Notes: generated from the sequence alone by a model not told the origin. Shown: positions 5,261 to 31,825, numbered from the stretch's first letter. The stretch: DNA of 64,000 bases from an uncultured Dehalococcoidia bacterium (GCA_964421985.1 CAYQZE010000018.1:583-64582), one strand, 5' to 3'. Numbers and translations are program-made.

Positions 5261-5761
5261 CTATTCGACGGGGCTGGCTGCCTCGATCGGGCGCGTTTCC
5301 AGCGAGTCAAGCGCGATGCGGACGTTCTTGCCGAACAGCTGCAACTGATCGTCCAGGCGGCGCAGCATCTCGGTGGCGTAGCGGTCGGCTTCGTCCATCT
5401 GTTCGTTCGCCAGCTTCTCGGCCTCGCCCATGCGCGCGCGCGCCTGGTTCTCTGTGTCGAGCAGCATGTGGTCGCAGCGTGCTTCTGCCTCGCGCACCAG
5501 CATGTCGGCGCGCGCCTCGGCAGCCTTCACGACGGATTCGTTCGAAAGGATATCGTCGGCCTGCTCCTCCGCGCGGCGCAGCTTTATCTTCGACTCTTCC
5601 TCCGCGCGCTCGATCATCTCGTCGCGGCGGCGGAGAATGTCCTCCGCCTCCCTGATCTCCGTCGGCATCGCGGCGCGCATCTGGTCGACCAGGTCCAGCA
5701 GACGCCGGCGGTCGACGACGACGCCCGCGCCGATCGGCATGCGCCGGCCCTCGGCGACCAT
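5261..5761 (-). CDS. hypothetical coiled-coil protein (charged E/R/A-rich heptad-like sequence)
   Basis: 166-aa ORF, highly charged coiled-coil-like composition. It lies downstream of coaD-rsmD in the same orientation. No confident family assignment. Confidence 0.5.
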   Translation of the reverse strand: MVAEGRRMPIGAGVVVDRRRLLDLVDQMRAAMPTEIREAEDILRRRDEMIERAEEESKIKLRRAEEQADDILSNESVVKAAEARADMLVREAEARCDHMLLDTENQARARMGEAEKLANEQMDEADRYATEMLRRLDDQLQLFGKNVRIALDSLETRPIEAASPVE

Positions 5762-5823
5762 CTCCTCGAGGCGGTCGATGAGATGTAGAGAATCGATGGC
5801 GCACCTCCCTGTGCTGGCGCGGG

Positions 5824-6294
5824 CTATCCGCGCGCCGCGTACTTCTTCTTCAGCGCGGTCCAGACGTGCGGCGGTACCAGATCGCTCACATCATACCCCA
5901 GCGCCGATACCTCGCGAATGCGGGTGCCGCTTATGTAGAGGTGCTCGAGGCTGGCCATCATGAAGATCGACTCGATCTCGGGCGCCATCTTCTTGTTCAT
6001 CAGCGCCATGTCGAATTCTGCCTCGAAGTCGGTGACGGCGCGCATCGATCGGACAACCACGCTGACGCCCTGCTGTCGCGCGAACTCGACCGTCAACCCC
6101 GAAAATGACGTCACGTCGATGTTCCCGCAATCCGCCACGGCCTCGCGGAGCAAGCTGACGCGTTCGGCGGTGGAGAAGAGGTAGTTCTGCTTCAGATCCG
6201 CGACGGCGACCAGCACGGTATCGAACATCCTCGCGGCGCGGCGCACAATGTCCCGATGACCGTTGGTGACCGGGTCGAACCGGCCGGGGAACAT
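5824..6294 (-). CDS. coaD: phosphopantetheine adenylyltransferase
   Basis: MFPGRFDPVTNGHRDIV...SFSGL...ISGTRIRE, full-length CoaD (157 aa). ATG at 6292-6294 inside a longer upstream-extended ORF. Confidence 0.9.
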   Translation of the reverse strand: MFPGRFDPVTNGHRDIVRRAARMFDTVLVAVADLKQNYLFSTAERVSLLREAVADCGNIDVTSFSGLTVEFARQQGVSVVVRSMRAVTDFEAEFDMALMNKKMAPEIESIFMMASLEHLYISGTRIREVSALGYDVSDLVPPHVWTALKKKYAARG

Positions 6295-6299
6295 CGCTT

Positions 6300-6875
6300 T
6301 CACAACGGAATCCCTTCTGCGGCGTAGATCGCGACGGCCGTATCTCCGTGCGCGCGTCTCTTGAGCAGGCGCAGGCGCCCCAGCGCCTCCGCTGTAACCG
6401 TCTTCTTGTGCTGCTCCAGCACAAGCACGGTCTCCGCATCTACCAGCGGCGAATCCGCGACGGCGGATACGCACGCCAGCGCGCCCTCATCGTAATACGG
6501 CGGGTCGGCGAGGACGAGGGTGTATGGCCCAGAAAGCCGTCCGATCGCACGATCGGCTGTCAAGCGGTGGACGTGGCCGCGCGCTTCCAGGCCCGTGCGT
6601 ATCAGGTTCGCCGAAATGATCGACGCCGTGGCCGCGTCGGCCTCCACGAAGTCCGCGGCGCCGTCGCCACGGCTCAGCGCCTCGATACCGAGCGCGCCTG
6701 TCCCGGCGTAGAGGTCCAGCACACGGGCATAGTCGGCGCCCATCGCGTCCAGCATGTCGAAGATGACGCCGCGGATCAGGTCCGACGTCGGACGGACGCC
6801 CGGGCGGCCCGGGGCGCGCGGCCTCGGCGGGCTCAACAGCGTGCGGCCGCGAGCGCTCCCCGCGATCACACGCAT
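6300..6875 (-). CDS. rsmD: 16S rRNA (guanine966-N2)-methyltransferase
   Basis: MRVIAGSARGRTL...VLDLYAGTGALGIEALSRG...LVLADPPY, typical RsmD. The start is set at the MRVIAG methionine; the 5' extension of the ORF is low complexity. Confidence 0.85.
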   Translation of the reverse strand: MRVIAGSARGRTLLSPPRPRAPGRPGVRPTSDLIRGVIFDMLDAMGADYARVLDLYAGTGALGIEALSRGDGAADFVEADAATASIISANLIRTGLEARGHVHRLTADRAIGRLSGPYTLVLADPPYYDEGALACVSAVADSPLVDAETVLVLEQHKKTVTAEALGRLRLLKRRAHGDTAVAIYAAEGIPL

Positions 6876-6913: not shown

Positions 6914-6960
6914 GATTGAACCACAGAGACACAGAGCCACAGAGATGCCTTGTTGGGTTA
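6914..6960. repeat. TTGAACC + CACAGAG x3 element (period 8), copy 1, 30-40 nt upstream of the rsmD start
   Basis: gattgaaccACAGAGacACAGAGccACAGAGatgccttgttgg. About 55 bp is shared with two copies at 28323-28378 and 28552-28608. Confidence 0.7.
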
Positions 6961-7044: not shown

Positions 7045-8718
7045 TCACGGAGGGGTTGTCGCTCCCGGCGCGACATCCAATGAGACAAGCTGCCCTGCCC
7101 GGACGACGCCGTCGCTGACGATCAGCGTGACGGTGTAGGTGCCTTCGTTGGCGGGGGCCGTCCAGGTGACGGCGTCGCCGGTTTGCGGTGTGATGGTGCC
7201 GCTGGCGGTTGACCACGCCGGCGTCAGAAGCTCGCCGTTCGGACGTGATAGTGTGAGGCTGCCCGTGTCAGCCGCCTGTTGCACGGGCGCCCACACATCG
7301 GCTCCACCGCCCTGGGTCGAGACGTCATTGATGGTGACGCCACCGAGGCCGCGCCGCTGCGCCAGGTCCAGCCGGAAGGCCGCGCTGAAGGCGTTGGCAA
7401 CCCAGACCGTGCGCGTGCCGCCACGGCCGGGATACTTGAATGTGACGGAGCGCGCTCCATCGTCCCACGTGAGCCCGCTGGCATTCTCGCTCGCTGCCAG
7501 GTTCTGGGCGACCAACTGCACCTTCGACGACGGCGTCAGATCGCCGGCCGTCTTCACGCTGACTATGCTGGCGCGGCCGAGCGCGTCGTCGAGCGAGAGT
7601 GTGCGAAGGCCGTCGCCGCCCCGTTCGACGCTGAGCGAGCTGATACTGATCAGCACCTTCGTGCGGTCGACTTTGTCGATGATGTAGTCGAGCGCTGCCT
7701 CGGTGTTCTGGAAGTACAGTTCCTGATCCAGCCCCCCGGCCAGCTCGAGCGTATCGGCCGACGTACCGAGTTGCTGCCAGTCGTAGGCGCCGGACTGCAC
7801 GGTGCCGCCTTCCTTCGCGGGCATGGGCAGCGTCAGCGTGAGCGTGCGGCCGTCCGCGTGGAGGGCCTTGGCGACAAGCGCGATGAGGCTCGTGAACTGG
7901 ACGCGCAGCGTGGGGTTGACGCTGCGGTAATCGATGTCGATGCCGGCGAAGTTGCCTTGCTTCACCGCATCGGCGATCGCGGCGGCGTGTTTGGCCTGGA
8001 GGTCTGTGGAACGCAAGATGCTATCAACGACTTCGGGCGCCGGGGCGACGATCGCCGGGACGACCTTGTAGCCCGCGGGCGGGACGGCGGGCGGCTGCCC
8101 GACGATCGTGCCATCGCCGACGGGGATGAACACGATGGGATGGAGCGTCGTAATGACCGCTTCGGCGCGCTTGTCCAGAGTAGCGCCGGCGGACATCGAC
8201 CCGGCCACCTGCAGCGTCGCCTTGCTGCGACGAAGCACGACGACGTTGCCAGGCAGCGCGCCGACGTCGCCACGCACCGCCTCGCCGCTCGCGACGAGCG
8301 TCGCGTCCGAGAGCCGCTGCCACTTGCCATCGATGTAGGTGTACAGCGCGAGGCTCCGCTGCTCGGTCTGCTTTTCGCGCAGCGGCACGGTGATCTTGGC
8401 GGCTCCGCGCTGATCCTGCGGCGCCGCCAGGTCGAATAGCGCAGAGGCCGCGACCAGTCCCGCCGGCAACTTCGGCATGCCGCTGCGGACGGTCGACGTA
8501 TAGGCGTCTGCGTCGCCCGGGCCGCTGGGGATGCCGCCGGTCCCTCCTCCACGACTGAGAATCGAGACCGGGGGCAGCAGCAGCACGAGCAGCAGGATTG
8601 CAAGCCCGACGATCGCGCCGGCGACGTAGATGGCGGCACGGTCGGGCCCGGGCGGTTCGGGGCCGTCGGGTTTCGTCTTCAGGATGCGGTCGAAGGGTCC
8701 GCGTGGTTGCGTCGTCAT
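7045..8718 (-). CDS. membrane-anchored protein with a GH18-like (chitinase-like, probably non-catalytic) domain
   Basis: N-terminal TM helix (AIYVAGAIVGLAILLLVLLL). Central motif FAGIDIDYR resembles the GH18 DxxDxDxE region but lacks the catalytic Glu. Confidence 0.5.
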   Translation of the reverse strand: MTTQPRGPFDRILKTKPDGPEPPGPDRAAIYVAGAIVGLAILLLVLLLPPVSILSRGGGTGGIPSGPGDADAYTSTVRSGMPKLPAGLVAASALFDLAAPQDQRGAAKITVPLREKQTEQRSLALYTYIDGKWQRLSDATLVASGEAVRGDVGALPGNVVVLRRSKATLQVAGSMSAGATLDKRAEAVITTLHPIVFIPVGDGTIVGQPPAVPPAGYKVVPAIVAPAPEVVDSILRSTDLQAKHAAAIADAVKQGNFAGIDIDYRSVNPTLRVQFTSLIALVAKALHADGRTLTLTLPMPAKEGGTVQSGAYDWQQLGTSADTLELAGGLDQELYFQNTEAALDYIIDKVDRTKVLISISSLSVERGGDGLRTLSLDDALGRASIVSVKTAGDLTPSSKVQLVAQNLAASENASGLTWDDGARSVTFKYPGRGGTRTVWVANAFSAAFRLDLAQRRGLGGVTINDVSTQGGGADVWAPVQQAADTGSLTLSRPNGELLTPAWSTASGTITPQTGDAVTWTAPANEGTYTVTLIVSDGVVRAGQLVSLDVAPGATTPP

Positions 8719-18537: not shown

Positions 18538-19755
18538 ATGGACTTTCACGACACGCCAACCGAAGCAGCATTTCGCGCTGAAGTGCGCGCGTTCATCGAA
18601 AATGAGTGCCCGCCCGGCATCAAGCGCCGGGGCTTCCGCGCGGCGTTCGGCGGCGGCGGCTGGGACGACATCCGCATGTCGCGCGAGGAGTACTTCGCGA
18701 CGAACGGCGGTTGGGTGAAGAAGCTGGCAGAGCACGGCTGGATCGCGCCGGCCTGGCCGAAAGAGTACGGCGGCGCCGGGATGACCGTTATGGAGCAGTT
18801 CATCTTCAGCCAGGAGATGTCGCTCGCGGGCGCGCCGCGCGGCGGCAACTTCGGCATCGGCACCGGCTGGGCCGGCCCGACGATCATCCTCCACGGCACC
18901 GAGGAACAGCGCAAGCGGTATCTGCCGGGCATCGTGCAGGGCGACGAGGTCTGGTGCCAGGGCTTCAGCGAGCCGGGCGCCGGCAGCGACCTTGCATCGG
19001 TGCAGACGCGCGCGATCAAGGACGGCGACGACTACGTTGTCAACGGACAGAAGATCTGGACATCGGGCGCGCACGTCGCGAAGTACATGATCCTGCTCGC
19101 TCGCAGCGACCCCGACGCGCCCAAGCACAAGGGCATCAGCTACTTCATCGTCGATATGAAGTCGCCCGGCATCACCATCCAGCCGCTGGTGAACATGGCG
19201 AACAACCACGACTTCAACGAAGTCTTCTTCGACAACGTGCGCGTGCCGGCGAAGAACATGATCGGCGAGGAGAACCGCGGCTGGTACGTCGGCACGACGA
19301 CACTCGACTTCGAGCGCTCCGGTATCGCCACGAGCATCTCGCATTCGCTCATGGTGCAGGATCTCGCGACCTTTGTGCGCGAGAACAAAGGCCAGGGATT
19401 CATCTCGGAGAGCAAGAGCGTAAAGAACGAGATCGCCGACCGGATGATCGAAGCGGGCGTCGAGGAGATGCTGTCGTACCAGGTGATCTCGATGCAGAAC
19501 CGCGGCCTCGTGCCGAACAAGGAGTCATCGATCGCCAAGCTGTTCTCGTCGGAGCTGGACGTGCGGATCGCCGGCACCGCCATGCGCGTGCTGGGCCCCT
19601 ACGGCCAGCTGTGCACCGGCAGCGAGCACGCCCCGGCGGGCGGACGCGTCGAAAGCACATACCTGTACGCGACGACGAGCACAGTCGGTGGCGGAACATC
19701 GGAAATCCAAAGAAATATCATCGCGTCGCGCGGGCTGGGTTTACCCCGCGCGTAG
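18538..19755 (+). CDS. acyl-CoA dehydrogenase, paralog 1
   Basis: 405 aa. GWIAPAWPKEYGGAG, WCQGFSEPGAGSDLAS, C-terminal GGTSEIQRNIIASRGLGLPR. About 60-70% similarity to paralogs 2-5. Confidence 0.9.
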   Translation: MDFHDTPTEAAFRAEVRAFIENECPPGIKRRGFRAAFGGGGWDDIRMSREEYFATNGGWVKKLAEHGWIAPAWPKEYGGAGMTVMEQFIFSQEMSLAGAPRGGNFGIGTGWAGPTIILHGTEEQRKRYLPGIVQGDEVWCQGFSEPGAGSDLASVQTRAIKDGDDYVVNGQKIWTSGAHVAKYMILLARSDPDAPKHKGISYFIVDMKSPGITIQPLVNMANNHDFNEVFFDNVRVPAKNMIGEENRGWYVGTTTLDFERSGIATSISHSLMVQDLATFVRENKGQGFISESKSVKNEIADRMIEAGVEEMLSYQVISMQNRGLVPNKESSIAKLFSSELDVRIAGTAMRVLGPYGQLCTGSEHAPAGGRVESTYLYATTSTVGGGTSEIQRNIIASRGLGLPRA

Positions 19756-19771
19756 AAACATGAACGAGCGT

Positions 19772-19793
19772 GTAGCGCGGACTTCAGTCCGCG
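19772..19793 (+). repeat. REP element type 2 (GTAG + cgcggac/gtccgcg hairpin)
   Basis: GTAGCGCGGACTTCAGTCCGCG. An inverted degenerate copy of the palindrome core lies at 19815-19830. Confidence 0.55.
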
Positions 19794-19892
19794 TGAGGTG
19801 GGAAGCGGCGAACGCGCAGACTGAAGTCCACGCCACAGAATCGCCGAACAGACGACTGACGGCCGACGACCAATTCGAGAGAGGATCAACCG

Positions 19893-21074
19893 ATGAACTT
19901 TGCTGACAGCGCGGAAGAGGCGACGTTTCGGCAGGAGGTGCGCGACTTCGTCAACGCCGAGATCAAGTCCGACTTGAAGACCGGCGATCTGGTGGAGTCG
20001 GGCATGTATCGCGGCGCCTTCGAGCGCCTGAAGGGCGTGCGCGGCAAGCTCGCGAAGCGCGGCTGGATCGCCCCGGCGTGGCCGAAGGAGTACGGCGGTG
20101 CCAGTCTCTCCGTGATGCAGCAGTTCATCATGAACGAGGAGTTCGCCGAAAGCCGTGTGCCGCCCGTCGGCGGCATGGGCGTCTCGATGGTCGGACCGAC
20201 GATCATCACCCACGGCAACGAGGACCAGCGGAAGGAGCACCTGAGCCGCATCCTCTCGGGTGACGTGCAGTGGTGCCAGGGCTTCAGCGAGCCCGGATCG
20301 GGCTCCGACCTCGCGTCGCTGCAGACACGCGCGGTGAAGGACGGCGACGACTACGTGATCAACGGTCAGAAGATCTGGACATCCGGCGCTTCCTACGCGC
20401 ACTGGATGTTCATGATGGCGAGGACCGACCCTGATGCGCCGAAGCACAAGGGCATCAGCTACTTCCTCGTCGACATGAAGTCGCCTGGCGTCGAGGTGCG
20501 GCCGCTGACGAACCTCGCGAATCAGAACATGTTCAATGAGGTGTTCTTCCAGGACGTGCGCGTGCCGGCGAAGAACATCGTTGGCGAGGTGAACCGCGGT
20601 TGGTACGTCGGCACCACGACGCTCGACTTCGAGCGATCGAGCATCGGCAGCGCCGTCGGCCTCAAGCTGCAGCTCGATGAACTGGTGAAGTACGCGAAGC
20701 AAAACGAGAAGACAGGCAGCAGCCGCACCGGCTATCTCTCGTCAGTCAAGTCGGAGCTCGCCGACCGCTACGTCGAAGCGACCGTCGCGAAAATGATGTC
20801 CTATCGCGTCGTCACGATGCAGGCCAAGGGCCTGATCCCCAACCATGAAGCATCGATGACCAAACTCTTCGCTTCGGAGTTGACGCAGCGCATCGCGCGC
20901 ACGGGCGTGAAGGTGCTGGGTCTGTACGGGCAGCTCTACGGCGAAGGCGCACCGATGCGTGGCCGTTACGAGAGCTCGTACATGACGTCCCTCGCATCGA
21001 CGATCGCCGGCGGCACCAGCGAGATCCAGCGAAACATCATCGCGACCAGAGGGCTCGGACTACCGCGGGACTGA
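19893..21074 (+). CDS. acyl-CoA dehydrogenase, paralog 2
   Basis: 393 aa with the same motif set as paralog 1. Confidence 0.9.
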   Translation: MNFADSAEEATFRQEVRDFVNAEIKSDLKTGDLVESGMYRGAFERLKGVRGKLAKRGWIAPAWPKEYGGASLSVMQQFIMNEEFAESRVPPVGGMGVSMVGPTIITHGNEDQRKEHLSRILSGDVQWCQGFSEPGSGSDLASLQTRAVKDGDDYVINGQKIWTSGASYAHWMFMMARTDPDAPKHKGISYFLVDMKSPGVEVRPLTNLANQNMFNEVFFQDVRVPAKNIVGEVNRGWYVGTTTLDFERSSIGSAVGLKLQLDELVKYAKQNEKTGSSRTGYLSSVKSELADRYVEATVAKMMSYRVVTMQAKGLIPNHEASMTKLFASELTQRIARTGVKVLGLYGQLYGEGAPMRGRYESSYMTSLASTIAGGTSEIQRNIIATRGLGLPRD

Positions 21075-21088
21075 CGAGATGGTCGCCT

Positions 21089-21116
21089 GGTGAGTAGTGA
21101 CTAGTGATTGGTGGGT
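21089..21116. repeat. heptad array GGTGAGT-AGTGACT-AGTGATT-GGTGGGT; left terminal inverted repeat of four-helix-bundle cassette 1
   Basis: Four tandem 7-mers with consensus RGTGAYT. Inverted relative to the array at 21499-21526. Confidence 0.6.
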
Positions 21117-21127
21117 TGTCCCATCGC

Positions 21128-21451
21128 ATGGAGAAGGGATACGAGGATCTAGAGGTGTACCGCCGCGGACTCGCCTTGCAGCGACCGGTTCATGCGCTCG
21201 TCCTCCGATTTCCCGACTATGAGAAATACGACCTCGCGAGCCAAATGCGCCGGGCATGCAAGTCGATTCCGACCAATATTGTCGAGGGCTACGCGCGACG
21301 GCGATCTCCAAAGGAATTTTGCAGCTATCTCGCGCTGTCCGTAGGCTCAGCCAACGAGATGGAAGTACATTTCAAGATTGCGAAGGAGCTCGACTACATC
21401 AACGAAGCGGAGTTCGCACACTTCATCGAGGAATATCAGATCATCGGCTAA
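21128..21451 (+). CDS. four-helix-bundle protein (TIGR02436 / 23S rRNA intervening-sequence protein family), probably C-terminally truncated
   Basis: MEKGYEDLEVYRRGLAL...DLASQMRRACKSIPTNIVEGYARRR...SANEMEVHFKIA. TAA at 21449; in-frame continuation (QLTRLIQYWRT) is homologous to the C-terminus of the paralog at 23982-24389. Confidence 0.7.
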   Translation: MEKGYEDLEVYRRGLALQRPVHALVLRFPDYEKYDLASQMRRACKSIPTNIVEGYARRRSPKEFCSYLALSVGSANEMEVHFKIAKELDYINEAEFAHFIEEYQIIG

Positions 21452-21498
21452 CAACTAACGCGGCTTATCCAGTACTGGCGGACAAAAGGCGACGAGTC

Positions 21499-21526
21499 GG
21501 TCACCAGTCACCAATCACCAATCACG
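21499..21526. repeat. heptad array GGTCACC-AGTCACC-AATCACC-AATCACG; right terminal inverted repeat of cassette 1
   Basis: Reverse complement reads CGTGATT-GGTGATT-GGTGACT-GGTGACC. Followed by GAGGAGACCAGACG and the ATG of ACAD paralog 3. Confidence 0.6.
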
Positions 21527-21539
21527 AGGAGACCAGACG

Positions 21540-22721
21540 ATGGACTTTAAGGACACGCCGACCGAAGCAGCATTTCGCAACGACGTGCGCACGTTCATTC
21601 AGGCCGAGGCGCCGAAGCGGAAGCTGGGCCAATCGGTCGAGGAAGCGATGGTGTCCGGCTGGCAGGCGAACCAGGAGTGGTTCCACAAGCTGGGCAGGAA
21701 GGGCTGGATCGCCCCGGCCTGGCCGAAGGAGTACGGCGGCGCCAGCATGACCACCGTCGAGCAGTTCATCTTCAACGAGGAGATGGCGCTCAACAAGGCG
21801 CCGCGCCCCCTGCACCAGATCATCGGGCTGGGCATGGCCGGCCCGACGCTCATCGTCCACGGCACAGAGGAGCAGCGGAAGAAGTACCTTCCGGGCATGT
21901 TGACCGGCGACGACGTCTGGTGCCAGGGCTACAGCGAGCCGGGCGCAGGCTCCGACCTCGCATCCTTGCAGACCCGCGCCGTGCGCGAAGGCGACGACTA
22001 CGTCGTGAACGGCCAGAAGATCTGGACGACGCTGGCGCACATCGCCCGCTACATGATCCTGCTCACGCGCACCGATCCGGATGCGCCGAAGCATCGCGGC
22101 ATCACGTACTTCATCCTCGATATGAAGTCGCCCGGCGTCGAAGTGCGGCCGCTCTACAACCTCGGCAACAGTCACGAGTTCAACGAGGTGTTCTTCGACA
22201 ACGTGCGCATCCCGAAGGACAACGTCATCGGCGAGGAGAACCGCGGCTGGTACTCCGCCGTCACCACGCTCGACTTCGAGCGCTCCAGCATCGGCAGCGC
22301 GACGGGCATGAAGCAGCACGTCGAAGAGCTGATCGACTACGCGACAGAGCACGCAGGCGACCCCACGAGCACGCTCCGGACGAACCCGATGCTGCGCTAC
22401 GAGCTTGCGGACCGCATGGTCGAGACCGAGGTCGCACGGATGCTGTCGTATCGCGTGGCCTCGATGCAAGCGCGCGGGCTGATCCCGAACTACGAGGCGT
22501 CGTCGCTGAAACTGTTCTCGACGGAGCTGAACCAGCGCATCGCGAAGTCGGCGATCCATATCCTGGGGCTCTACGGTCAACTGCGCGGCGACAGCGCGCC
22601 GACGAAGGGCCGCTGGCTCGGCCTGTTCTTGCGCTCGGCGGCGTATCCCCTCGAAGGCGGCACGTCCGAGATCCAGCGCAACATCCTCGCCCAGCGCGGC
22701 CTCGGCCTCCCGCGAGACTAA
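21540..22721 (+). CDS. acyl-CoA dehydrogenase, paralog 3
   Basis: 393 aa. MDFKDTPTEAAFRNDVRTFI...GWIAPAWPKEYGGAS...GGTSEIQRNILAQRGLGLPRD. Confidence 0.9.
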   Translation: MDFKDTPTEAAFRNDVRTFIQAEAPKRKLGQSVEEAMVSGWQANQEWFHKLGRKGWIAPAWPKEYGGASMTTVEQFIFNEEMALNKAPRPLHQIIGLGMAGPTLIVHGTEEQRKKYLPGMLTGDDVWCQGYSEPGAGSDLASLQTRAVREGDDYVVNGQKIWTTLAHIARYMILLTRTDPDAPKHRGITYFILDMKSPGVEVRPLYNLGNSHEFNEVFFDNVRIPKDNVIGEENRGWYSAVTTLDFERSSIGSATGMKQHVEELIDYATEHAGDPTSTLRTNPMLRYELADRMVETEVARMLSYRVASMQARGLIPNYEASSLKLFSTELNQRIAKSAIHILGLYGQLRGDSAPTKGRWLGLFLRSAAYPLEGGTSEIQRNILAQRGLGLPRD

Positions 22722-22749
22722 CGCCCGTGCCGGTGGATGGGAGTCCACG

Positions 22750-23931
22750 ATGCGATTCAAGTTCACGCCAGCACAAGAAGCATTCCGCACTGAGGTCAAC
22801 ACCTTCCTCAAGGAGACGCTGCCGCCCGACTGGGAGGGCGCGGATAACGCGATCGACGACGAGTCGTACGAGTTCGGGCGCGAGTTCCTGAAGAAGCTAG
22901 CGCCCAAACGCTGGATCGCGCCGGCATGGCCGACGGAGTACGGCGGGCTTGCGCTCTCGCACTGGGACCAGGTCATCTACAACGAGGCGATGGGCTACGC
23001 GCGCGCACCGATCATCAACGCGGCCGCGACGGGCTACCTCGGCCCGACCGTCATTCTCTACGGCAGCGACGAGCAGAAGGCGCAGCACCTGCCAGGCATC
23101 ACCTCCGGTGAAGTGGTGTGGTGCCAGGGGTACAGCGAGCCGAACTCCGGATCCGACCTCGCCTCACTGCAGACGCGCGCGGTGATGGACGGTGACGACT
23201 TTATCCTCAACGGGCAGAAGATCTGGACTAGCCAGGCGCACTACGCCGACTGGATGTTCGTCCTGGCGCGCACCGACCCCGACGCACCGAAGCATCGCGG
23301 CATCAGCTACTTCCTCATGGATATGAAGACGCCCGGCATAAGCGTGCGGCCGCTGGTCAATATGGCGAATGGTGCAGGCTTCAACGAAGTCTTCTTCGAG
23401 AACGTACGCATCCCGAAGTCCGGCCTGTTGGGAGAACTCAACCGCGGTTGGTACATCGCGACCACGACGCTCGACTTCGAGCGCTCGTCGCTGACCGGGA
23501 CGGCGCAGTCGCAACGCTCGCTCGAAGACCTGACGCGATTCGCGAAGACGGAGCGCCAGGCGGGCACCGGCGCCCGGCTCTGGGACAGGCCGGCCGTGCG
23601 GCACACCCTCGCCGACCTGTGGGTGTCGCTCGACGTGACGCGCATGCTGTCGTACCGCGTCGTCAGCATGCAGGCGCGCGGTTTGGTGCCCAACTACGAA
23701 GCGTCGATCATCAAGGTCTTCAATACGGACTATGTGCAGCGACAGGCGCGCGTCGGCCTCGGCCTCATGGGCCTCTACGGCGGACTGTGGGGCGAAGGCC
23801 CTTGGTCGAAGCTGCGCGGCCGCTTCGCGAAGTCCTACGTCGCCACGGTCGGCGCGGCGATCGCCGGCGGCACGACGGAGATCCAGCGCAACATCATCGC
23901 CCAGCGCGGTTTGGGCTTGCCGAGGCAGTAA
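22750..23931 (+). CDS. acyl-CoA dehydrogenase, paralog 4
   Basis: 393 aa. WIAPAWPTEYGG...WCQGYSEPNSGSDLAS...GGTTEIQRNIIAQRGLGLPRQ. Confidence 0.9.
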   Translation: MRFKFTPAQEAFRTEVNTFLKETLPPDWEGADNAIDDESYEFGREFLKKLAPKRWIAPAWPTEYGGLALSHWDQVIYNEAMGYARAPIINAAATGYLGPTVILYGSDEQKAQHLPGITSGEVVWCQGYSEPNSGSDLASLQTRAVMDGDDFILNGQKIWTSQAHYADWMFVLARTDPDAPKHRGISYFLMDMKTPGISVRPLVNMANGAGFNEVFFENVRIPKSGLLGELNRGWYIATTTLDFERSSLTGTAQSQRSLEDLTRFAKTERQAGTGARLWDRPAVRHTLADLWVSLDVTRMLSYRVVSMQARGLVPNYEASIIKVFNTDYVQRQARVGLGLMGLYGGLWGEGPWSKLRGRFAKSYVATVGAAIAGGTTEIQRNIIAQRGLGLPRQ

Positions 23932-23942
23932 TGGTGGCCGAG

Positions 23943-23963
23943 AGGTCAGAAGTCAGAGGTCGG
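23943..23963. repeat. heptad triplet AGGTCAG-AAGTCAG-AGGTCGG; left terminal inverted repeat of four-helix-bundle cassette 2
   Basis: Matches 18 of 21 positions of the reverse complement of the triplet at 24347-24367. Confidence 0.6.
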
Positions 23964-23981
23964 AATGTGACAAGCACGAGC

Positions 23982-24389
23982 GTGATCAAAAGCTTTCGTG
24001 ACCTTCAGGTGTACCAGCGCGGTATGTCGTTGCTGAAGCCGGTGCATGAGCTGACGCGCACGCTGCCAGACTACGAGAAGTACGATCTTGCGAATCAACT
24101 TCGTCGCGCCTGCAAGTCAGTGCCCGCGAACATCGCGGAAGGTTACGCGAAGCGGCGCTCAGCGAAGGAGTTTCGCGCCTACCTGACCAACGCGATGGGC
24201 TCCGCGACCGAGATGGAAGTGCATCTGGAAATCGCACGCGAACTGGAATACATTTCGATCGAAGAGGCCGCGCAGCTAATCGACCAGTACCAGATCCTGG
24301 CGAGACAGCTGTACCGGCTCATCGAGAAGTGGCGCACGCTCGAGATCCGACCTCCGACTTCCGATCTCTCAGCCACCGGAACGGATTGA
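23982..24389 (+). CDS. four-helix-bundle protein (TIGR02436 / 23S-IVS protein family), full-length paralog
   Basis: GTG start gives IKSFRDLQVYQRGMSLL..., aligning with MEKGYEDLEVYRRG of paralog 1. C-terminus QILARQLYRLIEKWRT. TGA overlaps the ATG of ACAD5 (TGATG). Alternative in-frame starts at 23931 and 23967. Confidence 0.7.
   Translation: MIKSFRDLQVYQRGMSLLKPVHELTRTLPDYEKYDLANQLRRACKSVPANIAEGYAKRRSAKEFRAYLTNAMGSATEMEVHLEIARELEYISIEEAAQLIDQYQILARQLYRLIEKWRTLEIRPPTSDLSATGTD
24347..24367. repeat. heptad triplet CCGACCT-CCGACTT-CCGATCT within the 3' end of four-helix-bundle gene 2; right terminal inverted repeat of cassette 2
   Basis: Reverse complement reads AGATCGG-AAGTCGG-AGGTCGG. The 7-nt periodicity is out of codon phase, so this is a DNA-level repeat. 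Confidence 0.6.
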
Positions 24390-25570
24390 TGGACTTCCGA
24401 GATTCTCCCGAAGACGCAGCATTCCGGCAAGAAGTACGCGACTTCCTGCGTGATGAGCTGCCGCACGACCTGCGGGCCGCCGATGACGCGATCCTGGGCG
24501 TGGGCATCGGCGAGGATGAGCGCGAGCGCGACTGGCTGCGGACGCTGGCAAAGCGCGGCTGGGTCGCGCCGGCGTGGCCGAAGGCCTACGGCGGCGCCGG
24601 TCTCTCCGTGATGCAACAGTTCGTCTTCAACGAAGAGATGGCACGCGCCGCGGCGCCGCGGCCGAACTGCCTCGCGATCGGCCTCGCAGGGCCGACGATC
24701 ATCGTGCACGGGACCGAGGAGCAGAAGCGCGAGCACCTCTCGGGCATCCTCTCCGGCGAACAGTTCTGGTGCCAGGGATTCAGCGAGCCGGGGTCGGGAT
24801 CGGACCTGGCGTCGCTGCAGACGCGCGCCGTGGAGGATGGTGACGACTACATCATCAACGGCCAGAAGATCTGGACGTCAGGCGCGCACCGCTCGCAGCG
24901 GATGATGCTGCTGGCGCGCACGGACCCGGACGTACCGAAGCACAAGGGCATCAGCTACTTCCTCCTGAACATGAAGTCGCCGGGCATCACGGTGCGGCCG
25001 CTGACGAACATCGCGGACACGCCGAGCTTCAACGAAGTGTTCTTCGACAACGTACGCGTGCCGAAGAGCGACCTGCTGGGCGAGTTGCACCGCGGCTGGT
25101 ACGTGGCGACGACCACGCTCGATTTCGAGCGCTCGGGCATCATCAATGGCGTTTCCCTGCAGCGGCTCGTGCATGAACTCGCTGCGTTCGTCCGCGATCG
25201 CGATCGCGTGCGGGATGACCCCGGCCTGGAAACCGTCCGACACGAGCTGGCGGACCGGGCGATCGAGGCACGGATCTCTATCGTGCTGTCCTACAGAGTG
25301 GCGACGATGCAAGCGAAGGGCATCGTGCCCAACCAGGAGGCATCGATCACCAAGTTGTTCGGATCTGAGCTGGCGCAGCGCATCGCGCGCACCGGTGTTA
25401 AGCTCAGCGGCCTCTACGGACAGCTGCGGGCGGGGTCGGCGCGCGCGCCGTTGGGCGGGCGGCTGGACGCGATGTATCGCATCGCGGTCGGCTCGACCCT
25501 GGCGGGCGGCACGTCGGAGATCCAGCGCGGCGTGATCGCGCAGCGCGGGCTGGGGATGCCGCGGGGATGA
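24389..25570 (+). CDS. acyl-CoA dehydrogenase, paralog 5
   Basis: 394 aa. MDFRDSPEDAAFRQEVRDFL...GWVAPAWPKAYGGAG...GGTSEIQRGVIAQRGLGMPRG. Confidence 0.9.
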   Translation: MDFRDSPEDAAFRQEVRDFLRDELPHDLRAADDAILGVGIGEDERERDWLRTLAKRGWVAPAWPKAYGGAGLSVMQQFVFNEEMARAAAPRPNCLAIGLAGPTIIVHGTEEQKREHLSGILSGEQFWCQGFSEPGSGSDLASLQTRAVEDGDDYIINGQKIWTSGAHRSQRMMLLARTDPDVPKHKGISYFLLNMKSPGITVRPLTNIADTPSFNEVFFDNVRVPKSDLLGELHRGWYVATTTLDFERSGIINGVSLQRLVHELAAFVRDRDRVRDDPGLETVRHELADRAIEARISIVLSYRVATMQAKGIVPNQEASITKLFGSELAQRIARTGVKLSGLYGQLRAGSARAPLGGRLDAMYRIAVGSTLAGGTSEIQRGVIAQRGLGMPRG

Positions 25571-27264: not shown

Positions 27265-27304
27265 CGCCGCCCGTCGACGACGAAGGCTCGAACCAGCATG
27301 TAAG

Positions 27305-27335
27305 GAAGGGCCGCCCACATCGGGCGGCCCTTCCT
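27305..27335. terminator. 13-bp perfect-stem hairpin (ggaagggccgccc / gggcggcccttcc, loop acatc) between convergent ACAD6 and panE-like genes; bidirectional terminator candidate
   Basis: Read directly from the sequence. Confidence 0.5.
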
Positions 27336-27342
27336 TGCTCAA

Positions 27343-28314
27343 CTAACCGCCCATCTCGGCTTCTACATCGTGCACGCTCACGGATCCCGGTGCGGCGCCG
27401 TCGCGCGCCATGCGCGATGCGATCGCCTGCAGCGCGGCGTTCGCGCGCGTGGCGACGCCGTGCAGCCTGCCCAGCAGGGCGATCTCGCCGTTGAGGTAGT
27501 CGGTCTCGATGCTGCCGGTCTTGCGGGCGAGGCTCTGCCACGACGACCCGCCGGCGCGGGCATGCCCCGCGATCTCGCGCATCGGCGACATCGGCCTGCG
27601 CCGCTCGTTCATCTCGTCGTCCGACGCCCAATCGATGCCGGCGGCGCGATAGCAGGCGATCGCTTCGTCGCGCAGGCGGGCGTGGAGTGCGCGCGTGTTG
27701 CCGCCGAGGCCGCATGAAGCCTGGACGGCGTTGCCGAGGTTCGAGAGCAGCTTGGCGTACTTCCAGCGCATGATATCGGCCGTCGGATGCGCGCTGATGC
27801 CCGACGCGTCGAGGTCCGCGGTGACGCGTGCGATCAGCGCGTCGCTGCCCGACGGATAGCAACCCGCATCGAGCACGCCGCTGACGGGTGCGCAGTGTGC
27901 TTGCACACGCCCGGGATCGAGATGCGTCGCGGGCAGCAGGACGAGCATCCCGTAGACGTTGGCGAACCGCCGCGCCGCCAAACGCTCGTTCTCGACGCCG
28001 TTCTGGGCGCAGACGACGGGCACGTGCGGTCCGGCCGTGGTGTGGAGGTCGGCGAGCGCGGCGGCCGTGTGCTGCGTCTTCATCGTCATCAGCACGACGT
28101 CATCCCCGGTGAACCGCAGCTCGGACGGATGGGCGACGGCGCTGATGCGCAGCGTCGTGCTCGTATCCGGCGTCTCGAGTGTCAGGCCGTGGCCGCGAAT
28201 GGCATCGAGGTGCCGCCCGCGCGCGATCAGCACGACGTCGTGCCCTTGCTGGAAGAGCCGCCCGCCGATGACGCCTCCGACGGCGCCGGCACCGTAGATG
28301 ATGTAGCGCGTCAT
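27343..28314 (-). CDS. 2-dehydropantoate 2-reductase (ApbA/PanE) family protein
   Basis: MTRYIIYGAGAVGGVIGGRLFQQGHDVVLIARG Rossmann N-terminus. The start is set at the MTRY methionine inside the longer ORF. Confidence 0.8.
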   Translation of the reverse strand: MTRYIIYGAGAVGGVIGGRLFQQGHDVVLIARGRHLDAIRGHGLTLETPDTSTTLRISAVAHPSELRFTGDDVVLMTMKTQHTAAALADLHTTAGPHVPVVCAQNGVENERLAARRFANVYGMLVLLPATHLDPGRVQAHCAPVSGVLDAGCYPSGSDALIARVTADLDASGISAHPTADIMRWKYAKLLSNLGNAVQASCGLGGNTRALHARLRDEAIACYRAAGIDWASDDEMNERRRPMSPMREIAGHARAGGSSWQSLARKTGSIETDYLNGEIALLGRLHGVATRANAALQAIASRMARDGAAPGSVSVHDVEAEMGG

Positions 28315-28722
28315 GCTTGATTTTGAACCACAGAGGCACAGAGGCACAGAGGCTTTGGATGATGGTGGATGGTGGAGATCAACGGGGCGGGCAAGAGCGA
28401 TTGGAACGGCCGCCCGAGCGCGAACGGCCTCTCTTCTCGTCTGCGCACCCGGATTGCCGGAGAGGTCTATGTATTCGAACGCACGGCGTACAGCCGATGA
28501 CGCCTCCGACGGCGCCGGCACCGTAGATGATGTAGCGCGTCATGCTTGATTTTGAACCACAGAGGCACAGAGGCACAGAGGTTTTGGTGGGTGGTGGATG
28601 GTGGAGACCAACGGGGCGGGCAAGAGCGATTGGGAACGGCCGCCCGAGCGGGAACGGCCTCTTTTCTCATCTGCGCGCCCGGATTGCCGGAGAGGTCTAT
28701 GTATTCGAACGTACGGCGTACA
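28264..28722. repeat. tandem duplication of a 229-bp unit (copies 28264-28492 and 28493-28722, about 95% identical)
   Basis: The unit spans the first ~17 codons of the panE-like gene, the intergenic CACAGAGG x3 element and the last ~13 codons of the hydrolase-cyclase gene. The junction sits at a shared gccg microhomology. It generates the pseudo-ORFs MTRYIIYGAGAVGGVIG... and ...QRLYAVRSNT. Confidence 0.85.
28323..28378. repeat. TTGAACC + CACAGAGG x3 element, copy 2 (8 nt upstream of the panE-like start on the minus strand)
   Basis: ttttgaaccACAGAGGCACAGAGGCACAGAGGctttggatgatggtgg. Copy 3 at 28552-28608 lies inside the duplicated unit. Confidence 0.75.
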
Positions 28723-30043
28723 GCCGCTGCGGCTCCTCGATGCCTTTGAGCGCATGCTCGCCACGATCGTCGAACGCGACGCCGGCCGACGTACGCCCGA
28801 GCGAGCGCACGACATCGGATACCAAGGTCTCGCCCGGCGCGGATGCGCTCGCAACGCGCGCGGCGATGTTCACGGCGCCGCCGTGGACGTCCTGCCCGTC
28901 GCGGATCACGTCGCCGGCGTGGATGCCGACGTGCAGTTGCAGATCGAGTCCGGCTGCCGCTTCGTGGCACCGCAGGGCACCCGCGATGGCGTCCTTCGCC
29001 GCATCGAACACCGCCATCACGCCATCGCCCAGCACGCGGCCTTCGACGACGCGCCCGCCGGCCGCCGCCAGCGCTTCGCGCACGCCGCGATGCAGCGCAT
29101 CGGATCGCCCGTGAAACGCCGCATCACCGATGCGCTCCGTGATCGCCGTCGAATCGACGATATCGGCGAAGAGGATGATGGCGGTGCCAACCGTGGCCGT
29201 GGGCGTCGCTTCAGTCATTTCGTGGTCCGCCGACGGCTCGCGGCCAAGCACGAACCGGGTGACGGCCCCGGCATCCTCGCGCCAGCCGAGCGCGGTATTC
29301 ATCGTCATCAGTCGTGCCCCGGCGACTCCGGCGACGACGACGCGTGCGAACTCGTTTCCGAGGCCGGAATACTGCTGGATCAGCGTAGGCGCTTGCACCC
29401 GCGCCAGCATCGGCGTGACGTCCTGCTCGCGTAGCGCCGCCAGGTAGCGCCGCAGCGTCGCTGGAGTAGTGGCTGAGCGCATGAGGCGGGCGAGCGCCGG
29501 CGCATCATCGCCACTCGCGTTCGCGGCTGTGAGCGCCGTTGCGTGCGTCAGCGTGTACAGCTCCCACTTCTCATCACCCATGGCCCGGAACGACTCCAGT
29601 CCTTGCATGGTTGGTAGGCGCCGATACCATTCGGCGCCGTTCACAAACGGGGTCGTGAGGATGAGGTGCGTCAGCCGCGTGGGATATTGAGCCGCGTAGG
29701 CGATACACGCGGGCGTGGCGAACACCATGCCCCACAACGCGAACCGTTCGAGCTGGAGGTGCTCACGCAGTGCCTCGAGGTCGGCGACCTGGCTTTCGAT
29801 CGAGAAATCTTCGACGTCACGGTCGGACATGCCCATGCCGCGCATGTTGTAGCGGACGAGATGGAAGCTGTCGCCGACGAGTTGGAGCGACGGCTCTCGC
29901 CACTCCATCTCCCATTGCAGGTCGAGGTGCGCCCAGATGTTGGACGAGAAGACGAGCGGCACACCTTCGCCCATATCGGTATAGGCGATGTGCGTGCCGT
30001 CAGCGCTGCGCACATACTGGACCTGCGGTTGCATGATCGGCAT
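28697..30043 (-). CDS. alpha/beta-hydrolase domain fused to a class III adenylate/guanylate cyclase domain
   Basis: 448 aa. N-terminal alpha/beta-hydrolase fold (HLVRYNMRGMGMSD...ALWGMVFATPACI). C-terminal cyclase motifs ILFADIVDSTAIT...VGIHAGDVIRDGQDVHGGAVNIAARV. Confidence 0.8.
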   Translation of the reverse strand: MPIMQPQVQYVRSADGTHIAYTDMGEGVPLVFSSNIWAHLDLQWEMEWREPSLQLVGDSFHLVRYNMRGMGMSDRDVEDFSIESQVADLEALREHLQLERFALWGMVFATPACIAYAAQYPTRLTHLILTTPFVNGAEWYRRLPTMQGLESFRAMGDEKWELYTLTHATALTAANASGDDAPALARLMRSATTPATLRRYLAALREQDVTPMLARVQAPTLIQQYSGLGNEFARVVVAGVAGARLMTMNTALGWREDAGAVTRFVLGREPSADHEMTEATPTATVGTAIILFADIVDSTAITERIGDAAFHGRSDALHRGVREALAAAGGRVVEGRVLGDGVMAVFDAAKDAIAGALRCHEAAAGLDLQLHVGIHAGDVIRDGQDVHGGAVNIAARVASASAPGETLVSDVVRSLGRTSAGVAFDDRGEHALKGIEEPQRLYAVRSNT

Positions 30044-30108
30044 CGTACCGCGACCGGCCGCGATGCGCCCGAACGGCGCACTTTCGCGCTAATCCGGCTG
30101 CCTGCCGG

Positions 30109-31035
30109 TCAGCCGCTCATCACCGTCGCCAGCCAGAAGTCGGCGAAGGCGGGCGCGTCGACCGAGGTGACGATCTCCGCTTCGTGTCCGGCGGCCGGGT
30201 CGATGAACGTGCGGACATGGCCGTGATGCATCGCCACGGTTACAGGCATCCGACTCGTCGTGACGAAGCGCCGGCCATCATCGACCATGCAGGCGATGGC
30301 GAGCGGATCGTGGAGCAGCGCGACGAACTCGGGCGGGATGATGCCACGGCCGCCGCGCTGGAAGTGCGGGATCCAGATGTCGATCTGGCGCGCCAGCGCG
30401 CGGCAGAGCGCATCGCCTTTGCGCAACTGGTCGAGGTGCGAGGCGGTGAGCCACGTCCCCATGGTCACATCGCACGGCACGTAGAGCGTCGAACCGCCGG
30501 TGTTGAGGGCGCGCAACGACGCCGGCTGGTCGACGTTGAGGTTGTGGTCGACGGTCGGCGGCAGTGTCACGCCCAGGAACTGCACCGGCGCGAACACCCC
30601 TCCCATCACCGTCAGCCGCGGCACCGTCGTCAGGAACCCCGCGTCGCCTTCGAGCGCCGCGGCGATGTTCGACTGCATGCCGACCGTGGCAATCTCGTAC
30701 CCCCGCGCTTCGCACTCGGCCAGCAACAGGCTGACGGCGCCGCGCTCGGAAGGCGCCAGATCGCCCGCCTCGCCGAGCATGGCGTCCTCGTGACCAGCTT
30801 CCGCGCTGCGCAGCGGCTGGCTCTGGATGCCCCGCTCGCCCGCCGCGACCTCGATGTCGTCGCGCCCCGCGAGCAGAAGCAGCTTCCTGGCGATCCGCGC
30901 GCGCCGCACGGTGTCGCCCGAGACGGTGGTTACCGCGCGGAGGTCCAGCGCCGGGTGACGCAGCGCGAACGCGAGGGCCAGCGCGCCGTCCACGTCGGTG
31001 CCGATGTCGGTATCCAGGATGAACGAGAGGGGCAT
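30109..31035 (-). CDS. inosine-uridine-preferring nucleoside hydrolase family protein
   Basis: MPLSFILDTDIGTDVDGALALAFAL matches the IU-NH Asp-rich N-terminal motif. Confidence 0.8.
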   Translation of the reverse strand: MPLSFILDTDIGTDVDGALALAFALRHPALDLRAVTTVSGDTVRRARIARKLLLLAGRDDIEVAAGERGIQSQPLRSAEAGHEDAMLGEAGDLAPSERGAVSLLLAECEARGYEIATVGMQSNIAAALEGDAGFLTTVPRLTVMGGVFAPVQFLGVTLPPTVDHNLNVDQPASLRALNTGGSTLYVPCDVTMGTWLTASHLDQLRKGDALCRALARQIDIWIPHFQRGGRGIIPPEFVALLHDPLAIACMVDDGRRFVTTSRMPVTVAMHHGHVRTFIDPAAGHEAEIVTSVDAPAFADFWLATVMSG

Positions 31036-31114: not shown

Positions 31115-31143
31115 TTGACAAACAAACGTTTGTTTGCTTAGAT
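31115..31143 (+). promoter_or_regulatory. promoter TTGACA, 17-nt spacer, TTAGAT with an 18-bp perfect palindrome CAAACAAACGTTTGTTTG in the spacer; candidate autoregulatory TetR operator
   Basis: Palindrome 31119-31136. GTG start of the TetR gene at 31151 implies a leaderless or near-leaderless mRNA. Confidence 0.65.
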
Positions 31144-31150
31144 CGTTGCC

Positions 31151-31825
31151 GTGAGTACTCTCGTCGCCAACGCCCCGCCCAGCGAGCTCCCCTCCACGCG
31201 CACCGCGATCCTGGACGCCGCCGAGCGGCGCTTCGCCGAGCGGGGCTTTGACGGCGTGTCGGTGCGGGAGATCGCCGCCGACGCGGGACTGAAGAACCAG
31301 GCGAGCCTGTACTACCACTTCGCGAACAAGCAGGAGATCTACGAAGCCGCGCTCGAGCGCAGCGTGGCGTCGATCATTGCGCGGTTGGCGGGCGCTGCGG
31401 ATGTGGCACGCCGCCCGCACGATCCGGCAACGATCGCGCATGATCTCGACCGCGTGCTCGATTACCTCATCGAGCATCCGCACGTCGCGAGGATCATCCA
31501 GCGCGCCGGCCTCGACGAGAGCGCGCTCGTCCGCGGCGTCGCGCAGCGTGCCGTCGAGCCGCTGTACACGCTCGGGGTACGACTCTTGCAGGATGCCGGC
31601 GGCCCCTGGCACGCGGACGAACTGCCGCATGTCGCGGCCGGGTTGTATCACCTGATCTTCGGGTACTTTGCCGACGCGGCGTTGCTGGAGGGCGTGCTGC
31701 ACGAAGATCTTCGCGGCGCGCCGGCATTGGCACGGCAGCGCAAGTTTCTCAGACGCGCCGTGGCGCGATTGATCGGCGCCGCGCCGCGGGACGAGACAAT
31801 GACGCACCAAGGAGACACACGATGA
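31151..31825 (+). CDS. TetR-family transcriptional regulator
   Basis: TRTAILDAAERRFAERGFDGVSVREIAADAGLKNQASLYYHF HTH. Stop overlaps the P450 start (ATGA). Confidence 0.8.
   Translation: MSTLVANAPPSELPSTRTAILDAAERRFAERGFDGVSVREIAADAGLKNQASLYYHFANKQEIYEAALERSVASIIARLAGAADVARRPHDPATIAHDLDRVLDYLIEHPHVARIIQRAGLDESALVRGVAQRAVEPLYTLGVRLLQDAGGPWHADELPHVAAGLYHLIFGYFADAALLEGVLHEDLRGAPALARQRKFLRRAVARLIGAAPRDETMTHQGDTR

Follow-up and report, generated by a model that had tools for sequence, protein, structure and literature searches.

A 229-nt Tandem Duplication Upstream of a panE-Like Gene in an Uncultured Dehalococcoidia Bacterium, and the Dispersed Octamer Hairpins Related to Its Spacer

Introduction

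How does the beginning of one gene, together with the spacer in front of it and the end of the neighboring gene, come to be present twice in direct succession, and what would this mean for the gene that follows? The question is raised by a stretch of 64,000 nt from an uncultured Dehalococcoidia bacterium (GCA_964421985.1, CAYQZE010000018.1:583-64582), referred to here as the window, in which positions are counted from the first nucleotide. On its minus strand, a gene for a fusion of an alpha/beta-hydrolase and a class III cyclase (hereafter the cyclase gene) is followed by a gene for a PanE/ApbA-family reductase (hereafter panE), and the region connecting the two is repeated in tandem. The repeat had been pointed out in a preliminary description made from the sequence alone. 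Based on the analyses presented below, we consider it likely that the two copies result from a lineage-specific, head-to-tail duplication of 229 nt via a GCCG microhomology, which took place after the cyclase gene had replaced a gene encoding an RDD protein, and which left both genes intact while doubling the module next to panE.

The Duplicated Unit and Its Junction

Copy 1 (28264-28492, minus strand, 229 nt) is proximal to panE and holds the real panE start, and copy 2 (28493-28722, minus strand, 230 nt) is proximal to the cyclase gene and holds its real 3' end. The copies are arranged head-to-tail with zero intervening sequence and are ~95% identical, as found by direct-repeat search, MAFFT and global alignment, and self-blastn. 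The direct-repeat search returned two in-register blocks (28264-28404/28493-28633 at 96% identity and 28403-28499/28633-28729 at 94%), whose start-to-start spacings are 229 and 230, and both alignments of copy 1 with copy 2 contain 10 substitutions and one single-base indel in 230 columns. Self-blastn of the window recovered the duplication at 94.3% identity over 245 nt (E = 2.5e-103), and found no second repeat with at least 90% identity in the 64 kb. Tandem Repeats Finder, set to periods of up to 500, missed the period-229 repeat, and the evidence therefore consists of the direct-repeat search, the alignments, and blastn; the program may overlook other two-copy duplications of about this size.

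Each unit comprises the first 17 codons of PanE (MTRYIIYGAGAVGGVIG), a spacer of 153 nt with three consecutive CACAGAGG octamers, and the stop codon of the cyclase gene preceded by seven complete cyclase codons, or by nine if the microhomology is counted (RLYAVRSNT plus stop), with the residues EEPQ lying outside the unit. The panE 5' fragment in copy 2 (28493-28543, minus strand, 17 codons) is identical to the real start, and its ATG opens a chimeric open reading frame (ORF) of 54 codons (28379-28543, minus strand), which begins with MTRYIIYGAGAVGGVIG, runs into out-of-frame sequence, and has no family match. The cyclase 3' fragment in copy 1 (28467-28492, minus strand), consisting of the stop codon, seven codons and 2 nt, is non-coding. 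Between this fragment and the panE-proximal part lies a distal spacer of ~90 nt (28378-28466, minus strand), which contains a GC-rich hairpin without a U-tract (28408-28429) and is unmatched in 1.7 Mb of loci.

The junction between the copies reads GGCGTACA, then GCCG, then ATGACGCC, and the string spanning it is GGCGTACAGCCGATGACGCC. Read directly in the sequence, GCCG is found at 28264-28267, at 28493-28496, and again just beyond copy 2 at 28723-28726, which leaves the repeat boundaries ambiguous by 4 nt, and the match at the breakpoints extends to six of seven positions (GCCGATG vs. GCCGCTG). By our arithmetic from the base composition of the window, fewer than 1% of arbitrary junctions would show a 4-nt match. 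Both breakpoints fall in the coding sequences of the flanking genes, 59 nt and ~115 nt from the octamer arm. Nevertheless both genes are intact: panE (27343-28314, minus strand) encodes 323 amino acids with domains PF02558 and PF08546, the cyclase gene (28697-30043, minus strand) encodes 448 amino acids with PF00561 and PF00211, the Pfam domains reach the ends of both, and PanE aligns over 99-100% of its length with homologs of up to 83% identity.

These results agree with the preliminary description as to the 229-bp tandem duplication with its ~10 differences and one indel, the ~17 PanE codons in the unit, the 4-nt gccg junction, and the integrity of both flanking genes. It was also right that the region upstream of panE is doubled, as this region is present in both copies, and we treat its role as a promoter as putative. 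By contrast, the number of cyclase codons in the unit had been overstated at 13.

Single-Copy Relatives and the History of the Locus

A comparison with relatives, recommended in the preliminary description as a check for the single-copy state, was made with six orthologous loci (L081-L084, L168, and L170), in which PanE is 77-83% identical, and in all six the region around the panE start is single-copy. The L170 contig stops 126 nt upstream of panE, and was excluded from the count of upstream gene orders. In each of the five loci that reach upstream (L081-L084 and L168), the order is P450-TetR-nucleoside hydrolase (IUNH)-RDD-PanE-acyl-CoA dehydrogenase (ACAD). The window shares this order apart from the position of RDD, which is taken by the cyclase gene; blastn found no RDD homolog anywhere in the window, and none of the single-copy relatives with upstream sequence has the cyclase gene as the neighbor of panE.

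The limits of the exchanged segment can be drawn closely. Homology to the relatives runs through IUNH (85.5% to L081) and halts ~10 nt before the IUNH stop codon. It is found again 63-66 nt before the panE ATG, from 28377 (copy 1) and 28606 (copy 2) onward, and extends through panE at 86.3%. In between, ~650 nt of the relatives, comprising RDD and most of the spacer, correspond to the cyclase gene and ~90 nt of unmatched spacer in the window (window 28607-30121 vs. L081 3285-3934). The replacement thus took with it the RDD gene as well as the 5' arm and the terminator of a hairpin in the relatives' spacer. The duplication is later than the replacement of RDD by the cyclase gene, since both the new spacer and the 3' end of the cyclase gene are part of each duplicated unit. 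As read from the compared sequences, the history of the locus is one of an ancestral gene order, replacement of RDD by the cyclase gene, and then duplication.

The duplication itself would have arisen by microhomology-mediated illegitimate recombination or by replication slippage at GCCG, either of which would join the 5' end of panE with the 3' end of the cyclase gene. The precise microhomology, the intact flanking genes, and the single-copy state in relatives point to such ordinary slippage or illegitimate recombination.

The panE-Proximal Module as a Candidate Promoter

What the duplication doubled is best seen from the ~63 nt directly upstream of panE (28315-28377, minus strand), an ancestral module that is kept in all seven sequences (the window and the six orthologs), and at whose distal end, equivalent to 28606 in copy 2, homology to the relatives begins. 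Toward the gene, the module consists of a C-rich, G-poor tract, three octamers, GGT(T/G)(C/A)A, an A/T-rich box, and the ATG. The octamers in the orthologs are CCTCTGTG and variants such as CCTCCGCG or CCTCGGTG; in the window, three CCTCTGTG octamers followed by GGTTCAA form an arm at 28323-28352 (minus strand), 14 nt before the panE ATG, with an identical arm in copy 2 (28552-28581, minus strand). The preliminary description had placed a threefold CACAGAGG element within the unit, where it is indeed found, but the element is not peculiar to this locus, being conserved before panE in the relatives and forming one arm of a dispersed hairpin family that we describe below.

The A/T-rich box is CAAAAT in the window (28320-28325, minus strand; 28549-28554 in copy 2), lies 5 nt before the panE ATG, and is a candidate -10 element. 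Across the seven orthologous sequences, the box lies 5-7 nt before the ATG and reads CAAAAT, AACAAT, CAAACT, or CAGAAT, with A at position 2 and T at position 6 invariant. A GGAGG-like Shine-Dalgarno motif is absent from all seven over the 14-17 nt that precede the start codon, whereas P450 and ACAD of the window both carry clear Shine-Dalgarno sequences. A TANNNT-like box ~12 nt before the start codon is a signature of leaderless genes in bacteria, including Chloroflexi (PMC3160421). The proximal module thus probably holds a -10-only core promoter of the leaderless type, which is now present twice.

Upstream of TetR in the window (31115-31151, plus strand), TTGACA is followed by 17 nt, TTAGAT, 7 nt, and a GTG start codon. 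Overlapping the spacer of this putative promoter is a perfect palindrome of 18 bp, CAAACAAACGTTTGTTTG (31119-31136), and the region is 87-96% conserved in the relatives. The -10 candidate TTAGAT lacks A at position 2. Judging from this layout, the TetR promoter is probably leaderless and autoregulated. The Shine-Dalgarno sequences at P450 and ACAD, their absence at panE, and the TetR layout together indicate that the organism uses both Shine-Dalgarno-led and apparently leaderless starts.

Alternatively, the repeated region might act as a structured RNA. This reading of the spacer and leader was rejected after folding against shuffled sequences, as neither the spacer (z = 0.12) nor the 229-nt leader that a transcript from the upstream copy would carry (z = 0.05) folds better than shuffled sequence, nor does the region upstream of rsmD (z = +1.86), which is considered below. 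With cmscan against Rfam 15, there was no match at E ≤ 10 in 27800-29200 and none at the gathering score in the whole window. A tRNA T-arm, a DnaA box, CRP half-sites, a sigma-54 promoter, and an ECF promoter were also considered, and rejected by inspection.

If the proximal module is a promoter, panE would stand behind two promoters in tandem. A transcript from the upstream one would begin at the duplicated ATG and encode the chimeric 54-codon ORF, and would then continue across the proximal promoter into panE, forming an unstructured leader of 229 nt without a Shine-Dalgarno sequence at the real start. Most likely the phenotypic effect would be small: the duplication would be near-neutral, or would modestly shift panE transcription, up or down.

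Divergence Between the Copies and Its Possible Causes

The differences between the copies are unevenly placed. All 11 are confined to the distal 141 nt, 10 of them to the distal spacer (28378-28466), leaving 89 nt identical, from the octamers through the box to the ATG and the 51 nt of the panE fragment. The probability of an identical run of this length is 0.047 for a run located anywhere, or 0.004 if that end of the unit is specified in advance. The cyclase fragments differ once (GTG vs. GTA), a change that would be synonymous, and the sole indel lies in a C homopolymer (CC vs. CCC). In the global alignment, transitions make up 7 of the 10 substitutions, as is typical of real mutations. The copies diverge by 0.048 overall and by 0.078 in the distal part, compared with 0.23 for panE and 0.34 for IUNH at four-fold sites to L081; measured against the nearest sampled lineage, the copies are thus about a fifth to a third as far apart. 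To judge from its distribution, the divergence looks like that between two alleles of a constrained single-copy locus, and it fits gene conversion between the copies, unequal exchange of diverged haplotypes, or constraint on both copies.

Several observations weigh against a simple in situ duplication with a doubled promoter. Neutral decay after such a duplication does not predict 89 difference-free nt that extend over a non-coding panE fragment; such a tract needs gene conversion, selection on both copies, or two diverged alleles as the origin. Only a single contig in the collections carries the sequence, the PanE protein cluster has one member, and support for the duplication comes from one assembly. 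The promoter assignment is weak, as no -35 element is recognizable and the first base of the box is T in none of the seven sequences, and a scan for promoter and terminator consensus sequences gave no sigma-70 match at panE, where the scan is uninformative, however, because it missed the TetR site too. panE could instead share a transcript with the gene upstream of it.

Two diverged alleles would be the starting point if the duplication is real and recent, and resulted from unequal recombination between two haplotypes, in which case the 5% divergence would be older than the duplication. This origin is possible, though we hold it somewhat doubtful. The allele-like differences fit purifying selection on a single-copy locus, and a distal divergence of 7.8%, compared with 0.23-0.34 at four-fold sites to the nearest sampled relative and hence a fifth to a third as large, is plausible for co-existing strains. 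However, gene conversion between tandem copies would yield the same identical tract of 89 nt.

Selection on both copies would apply if two promoter or operator modules are maintained because they alter the expression of panE, e.g., by raising output, titrating a regulator, or occluding a promoter. The lack of any difference over both promoter modules and the non-coding panE fragment would be expected in this case, and the proximal module is conserved across orthologs that are 17-23% apart in protein sequence. On the other hand, p = 0.047 for a run that is not specified in advance is a marginal value, 51 of the identical nucleotides would be expected to serve no purpose in copy 2, a transcript leader starting at the upstream copy shows no special fold, and a second copy is found in none of the relatives. 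Maintenance by selection is therefore unlikely.

Two alleles could also have been brought together by the assembler rather than the cell, if two ~5%-diverged strain alleles of a single-copy spacer were set in tandem during assembly, scaffolding, or polishing. The differences do look allelic, with none in the conserved promoter or the 51 nt of panE, one synonymous change in the cyclase fragment, and the rest in unconstrained spacer; the position of the lone indel in a homopolymer and the restriction of the sequence to one contig are likewise in line with an artefact. The preliminary description took the ~5% divergence to exclude this, but divergence alone is insufficient, because two strain alleles placed in tandem would give the same picture. 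Better arguments are that the join is a precise microhomology of 4 nt (6 of 7), of the kind expected in <1% of arbitrary end-joins, and that a de Bruijn or overlap path across the junction requires reads that contain it. Further, there are no Ns or irregularities nearby, and no comparable repeat occurs in the 64 kb. We therefore regard an assembly artefact as quite unlikely, and favor a genuine duplication through the GCCG microhomology.

A Dispersed Family of Octamer Hairpins

The octamers before panE have counterparts elsewhere. In the window, a second orphan arm (TCTCTGTG GCTCTGTG TCTCTGTG followed by GTTCAA; 6916-6945, minus strand) is located ~40 nt upstream of rsmD (6300-6875, PF03602), which precedes coaD (5824-6294, PF01467, with the FPGRFDPVTNGH signature). 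A weight matrix built from seven sites scored the three window sites at 47-57 bits, and no further site that might point to a CoA regulon reached 12 bits in the window or 18 bits in 1.5 Mb of loci, the retrieved DNA containing no rsmD or coaD locus of the relatives. An exact search of a viral contig collection (IMG/VR) found 11 stretches with CTCTGTGNCTCTGTGGTTCAA and seven with the CTTCGTG variant, on contigs with a GC content of 52-69% (L171-L181 and L183-L189); three of the contigs are of genuine phage origin, with genes for terminase or capsid. In a plasmid collection there was one match of 30 nt, on plasmid AP025020.1 of Calothrix sp. PCC 7716 (L182), which carries the arms TTTTACCACAGAGACGCAGAGGGCACAGAGATAAG and GAACCACGCTCGTCACAAAGGACACAAAGG in a spacer without annotation (1505-1535 and 1590-1625), suggesting that the family extends beyond Chloroflexota. 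No match to the octamer arms was found in an annotated phage collection.

On the viral contigs, an arm usually has an inverted partner 16-110 nt away (TTGAACC-CACAGAGG and so on, or units of CACGAAGG, CACGGAGG, and CAGTGAGG). Paired arms fold into a hairpin whose outer stem has 28-34 bp and whose folding energy is -44 to -85 kcal/mol, and inside which a further, GC-rich hairpin is often found. The outer stem consists of about three units of 8-9 nt, such that an arm starting with TTGAACC-CACAGAGG pairs with one ending in CCTCTGTG-GGTTCAA, and the unit variants CACGAAGG, CACGGAGG, and CAGTGAGG are usually matched in the opposite arm. Complete hairpins are found, for example, in L174 (5978-6065), L172 (11283-11419), L177 (3098-3202), and in L081 and L082 (3822-3995 in both). 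In the latter two, the spacer between RDD and panE starts with CACGAAGG-type units directly after the RDD stop codon, followed by a terminator-like hairpin, the CCTCTGTG arm, and panE. Such hairpins occupy entire intergenic spacers in phage contigs as well as in Chloroflexota chromosomes. Within the window, in contrast, the family is present only as orphan arms, before panE and before rsmD-coaD, and the partner of the panE arm was lost together with the RDD segment.

The position of the arms relative to genes bears on their function. Among 47 arms, a co-directional gene start lies within 80 nt in 51%, compared with 45% at random positions, and is thus not enriched, whereas incoming gene stops are (43% vs. 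14% at random positions), with the TGA of TTGAACC often serving as the stop codon. Since gene stops are enriched and gene starts are not, the family behaves like a spacer-filling hairpin of the REP or terminator type and not like a dedicated promoter, and a reading of the arms as dedicated promoter cassettes was rejected on the same grounds. The family has no match in Rfam, in which the phage loci gave only sub-threshold look-alikes of miRNA precursors caused by the long hairpins, and literature searches with the sequence strings found nothing relevant on it.

It is conceivable that the arms before panE and rsmD-coaD are domesticated pieces of the hairpin family that serve as a shared operator or promoter for pantothenate/CoA genes. 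Attractive as it may be, this reading draws on two loci in 64 kb, and we consider it very unlikely.

Two further features of the phage contigs were noted. L185, which has a capsid gene, contains tandem arrays with 2.6-5.2 copies of a unit of ~84 nt (731-951, 3903-4342, 5118-5325, and 7847-8113); every unit holds an octamer run, CCCTCTGTT CCCTCTGCG CCCTCTGTGG, and the arrays terminate in three CCCTTCGTG followed by GGTTCAAAAATCC. In L177, a match of 64 bits to Rfam RF00028, which exceeds the gathering score, marks a group I intron (5129-5414, minus strand) overlapping the end of a phage capsid ORF (5341-6390).

Arrays of this kind, together with the precedent of REP clusters, raise the alternative that the duplication upstream of panE was driven by the element itself, with the hairpin arm promoting tandem reiteration of itself and its flanking DNA. 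However, the breakpoints of the duplication are not at the element but in flanking coding sequence, at the distances from the arm given above, and the arm in the window is an orphan without hairpin potential (z = 0.12). An element-driven amplification thus appears highly improbable, and the GCCG microhomology remains our preferred starting point.

Comparison with Known Systems

The duplication is a further instance of a well-known kind of event. It is like other small tandem duplications at microhomologies in its head-to-tail copies without a spacer, its 4-nt junction, the single-copy state in relatives, and the intact genes; nothing essential is different, and what marks the present case is a divergence of ~5% that avoids the 89 nt next to the promoter. 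Promoter-capture duplications, of which the rnk-citT module of Cit+ E. coli is an example, create a new junction and extra copies of regulatory sequence. As in rnk-citT, the tandem duplication runs from the end of a gene into the start of its neighbor. Unlike in rnk-citT, the junction of a panE fragment with a cyclase fragment puts no gene under a new promoter, and panE instead gains a second copy of its upstream region.

A repeated element upstream of a pantothenate-type gene in Chloroflexota also brings to mind the pan RNA motif (Rfam RF01749), which precedes panBCD, often as tandem copies, in Chloroflexota, Bacillota, and deltaproteobacteria. This motif was rejected here, as cmscan gave no match to it at E ≤ 10 or at the gathering score. 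Integron attC sites have core sites, RYYYAAC and GTTRRRY, at the ends of an imperfect palindrome. The ends of the octamer hairpins, TTGAAC(C) and (G)GTTCAA, do hold AAC and GTT, but by inspection the flanking positions misfit the R and Y of the attC core, and this assignment was likewise rejected.

The closest parallels to the hairpin family are REP, BIME, and REPIN elements (PMC3733652; PMC8049555). Like these, the octamer element is a dispersed intergenic repeat that forms hairpins, frequently sits just past stop codons, and is found in some cases as a singleton, a dimer, or a tandem array together with flanking DNA. The large REP super-families are characterized by an imperfect palindrome of 20-40 bp tagged by an unpaired GTAG or CGTC (PMC3733652). 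The octamer family differs in that its stems of 28-34 bp are built from three units of 8-9 nt and end in TTGAACC/GGTTCAA with no GTAG or CGTC tag, and in that its arm sequence spans phages, Chloroflexota, and a cyanobacterial plasmid. REP-associated RAYT (Y1 transposase) genes were not encountered among ten ORFs flanking the arms, which gave only phage capsid and terminase families, no genome-wide survey having been made. As for miniature inverted-repeat transposable elements (MITEs), the complete hairpins do have inverted arms, no target-site duplication was seen by eye in L177, L174, and L172, and the window copies are one-armed. The family resembles REP/REPIN or MITE-like elements, lacks the tag that defines REP, and is unusual in its octamer-built stem. 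It also recalls reused or mobile promoters (PMC3575422), in that near-identical upstream modules precede the unrelated panE and rsmD-coaD in one genome, but is unlike them in not being enriched at gene starts.

Flanking Genes

In line with the gene replacement, the two genes on either side of the duplication differ in their affinities. The nearest non-self homolog of the hydrolase-cyclase is only 62% identical and lies inside an array of cyclase paralogs, compared with 83% for PanE, and the closest homologs of the cyclase (≤62%) are found in tandem paralog arrays elsewhere (L002 and L169). The GC content at third codon positions of the cyclase gene is 0.81, vs. 0.88-0.92 in neighboring genes. 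A genome scan with the cyclase had its best matches in metagenome-assembled genomes of Chloroflexota (57% and 44%), and the best of that scan (L002, ≤57% identity) has its cyclase paralog array without a panE neighbor. All PanE homologs that are named by their sources are from Chloroflexota or Dehalococcoidia. A metagenome scan with PanE gave, among the matches listed, identities of at most 68%, and none of these has the octamer motif.

Downstream of panE, a cluster of ACAD paralogs at 18700-25570, with DNA that is 66-78% identical by self-blastn, adjoins further ACAD genes, and an expansion of ACAD is also present in the relatives L083 and L168. The convergent spacer between panE and ACAD (27265-27342) contains a GC-rich, terminator-like hairpin (GAAGGGCCGCCC...GGGCGGCCCTTC); the same hairpin occurs in L081 (4970-5040), L083, and L168, where it is trailed by CTTCGTG-type octamer units, and the window copy is degenerate.

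Implications

Taken alone, the duplication illustrates a routine kind of change in bacterial spacers. The locus nevertheless gives a clean and datable history in three steps, from the ancestral gene order through a gene replacement to a microhomology duplication, and it offers a natural test case of one vs. two copies of a putative leaderless-type promoter in an uncultured lineage of Chloroflexota. Should the arms before panE and rsmD-coaD turn out to be a shared operator after all, the duplication would have doubled a real regulatory site, and selection would keep its copies identical.

The hairpin-repeat family is the more useful by-product of this analysis, with octamer arms of 20-30 nt in chromosomes, phage genomes, and a plasmid. 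Should such elements be mobile, or serve as binding sites of a conserved factor, they would be relevant to the annotation of terminators, promoters, and spurious small ORFs in environmental genomes.

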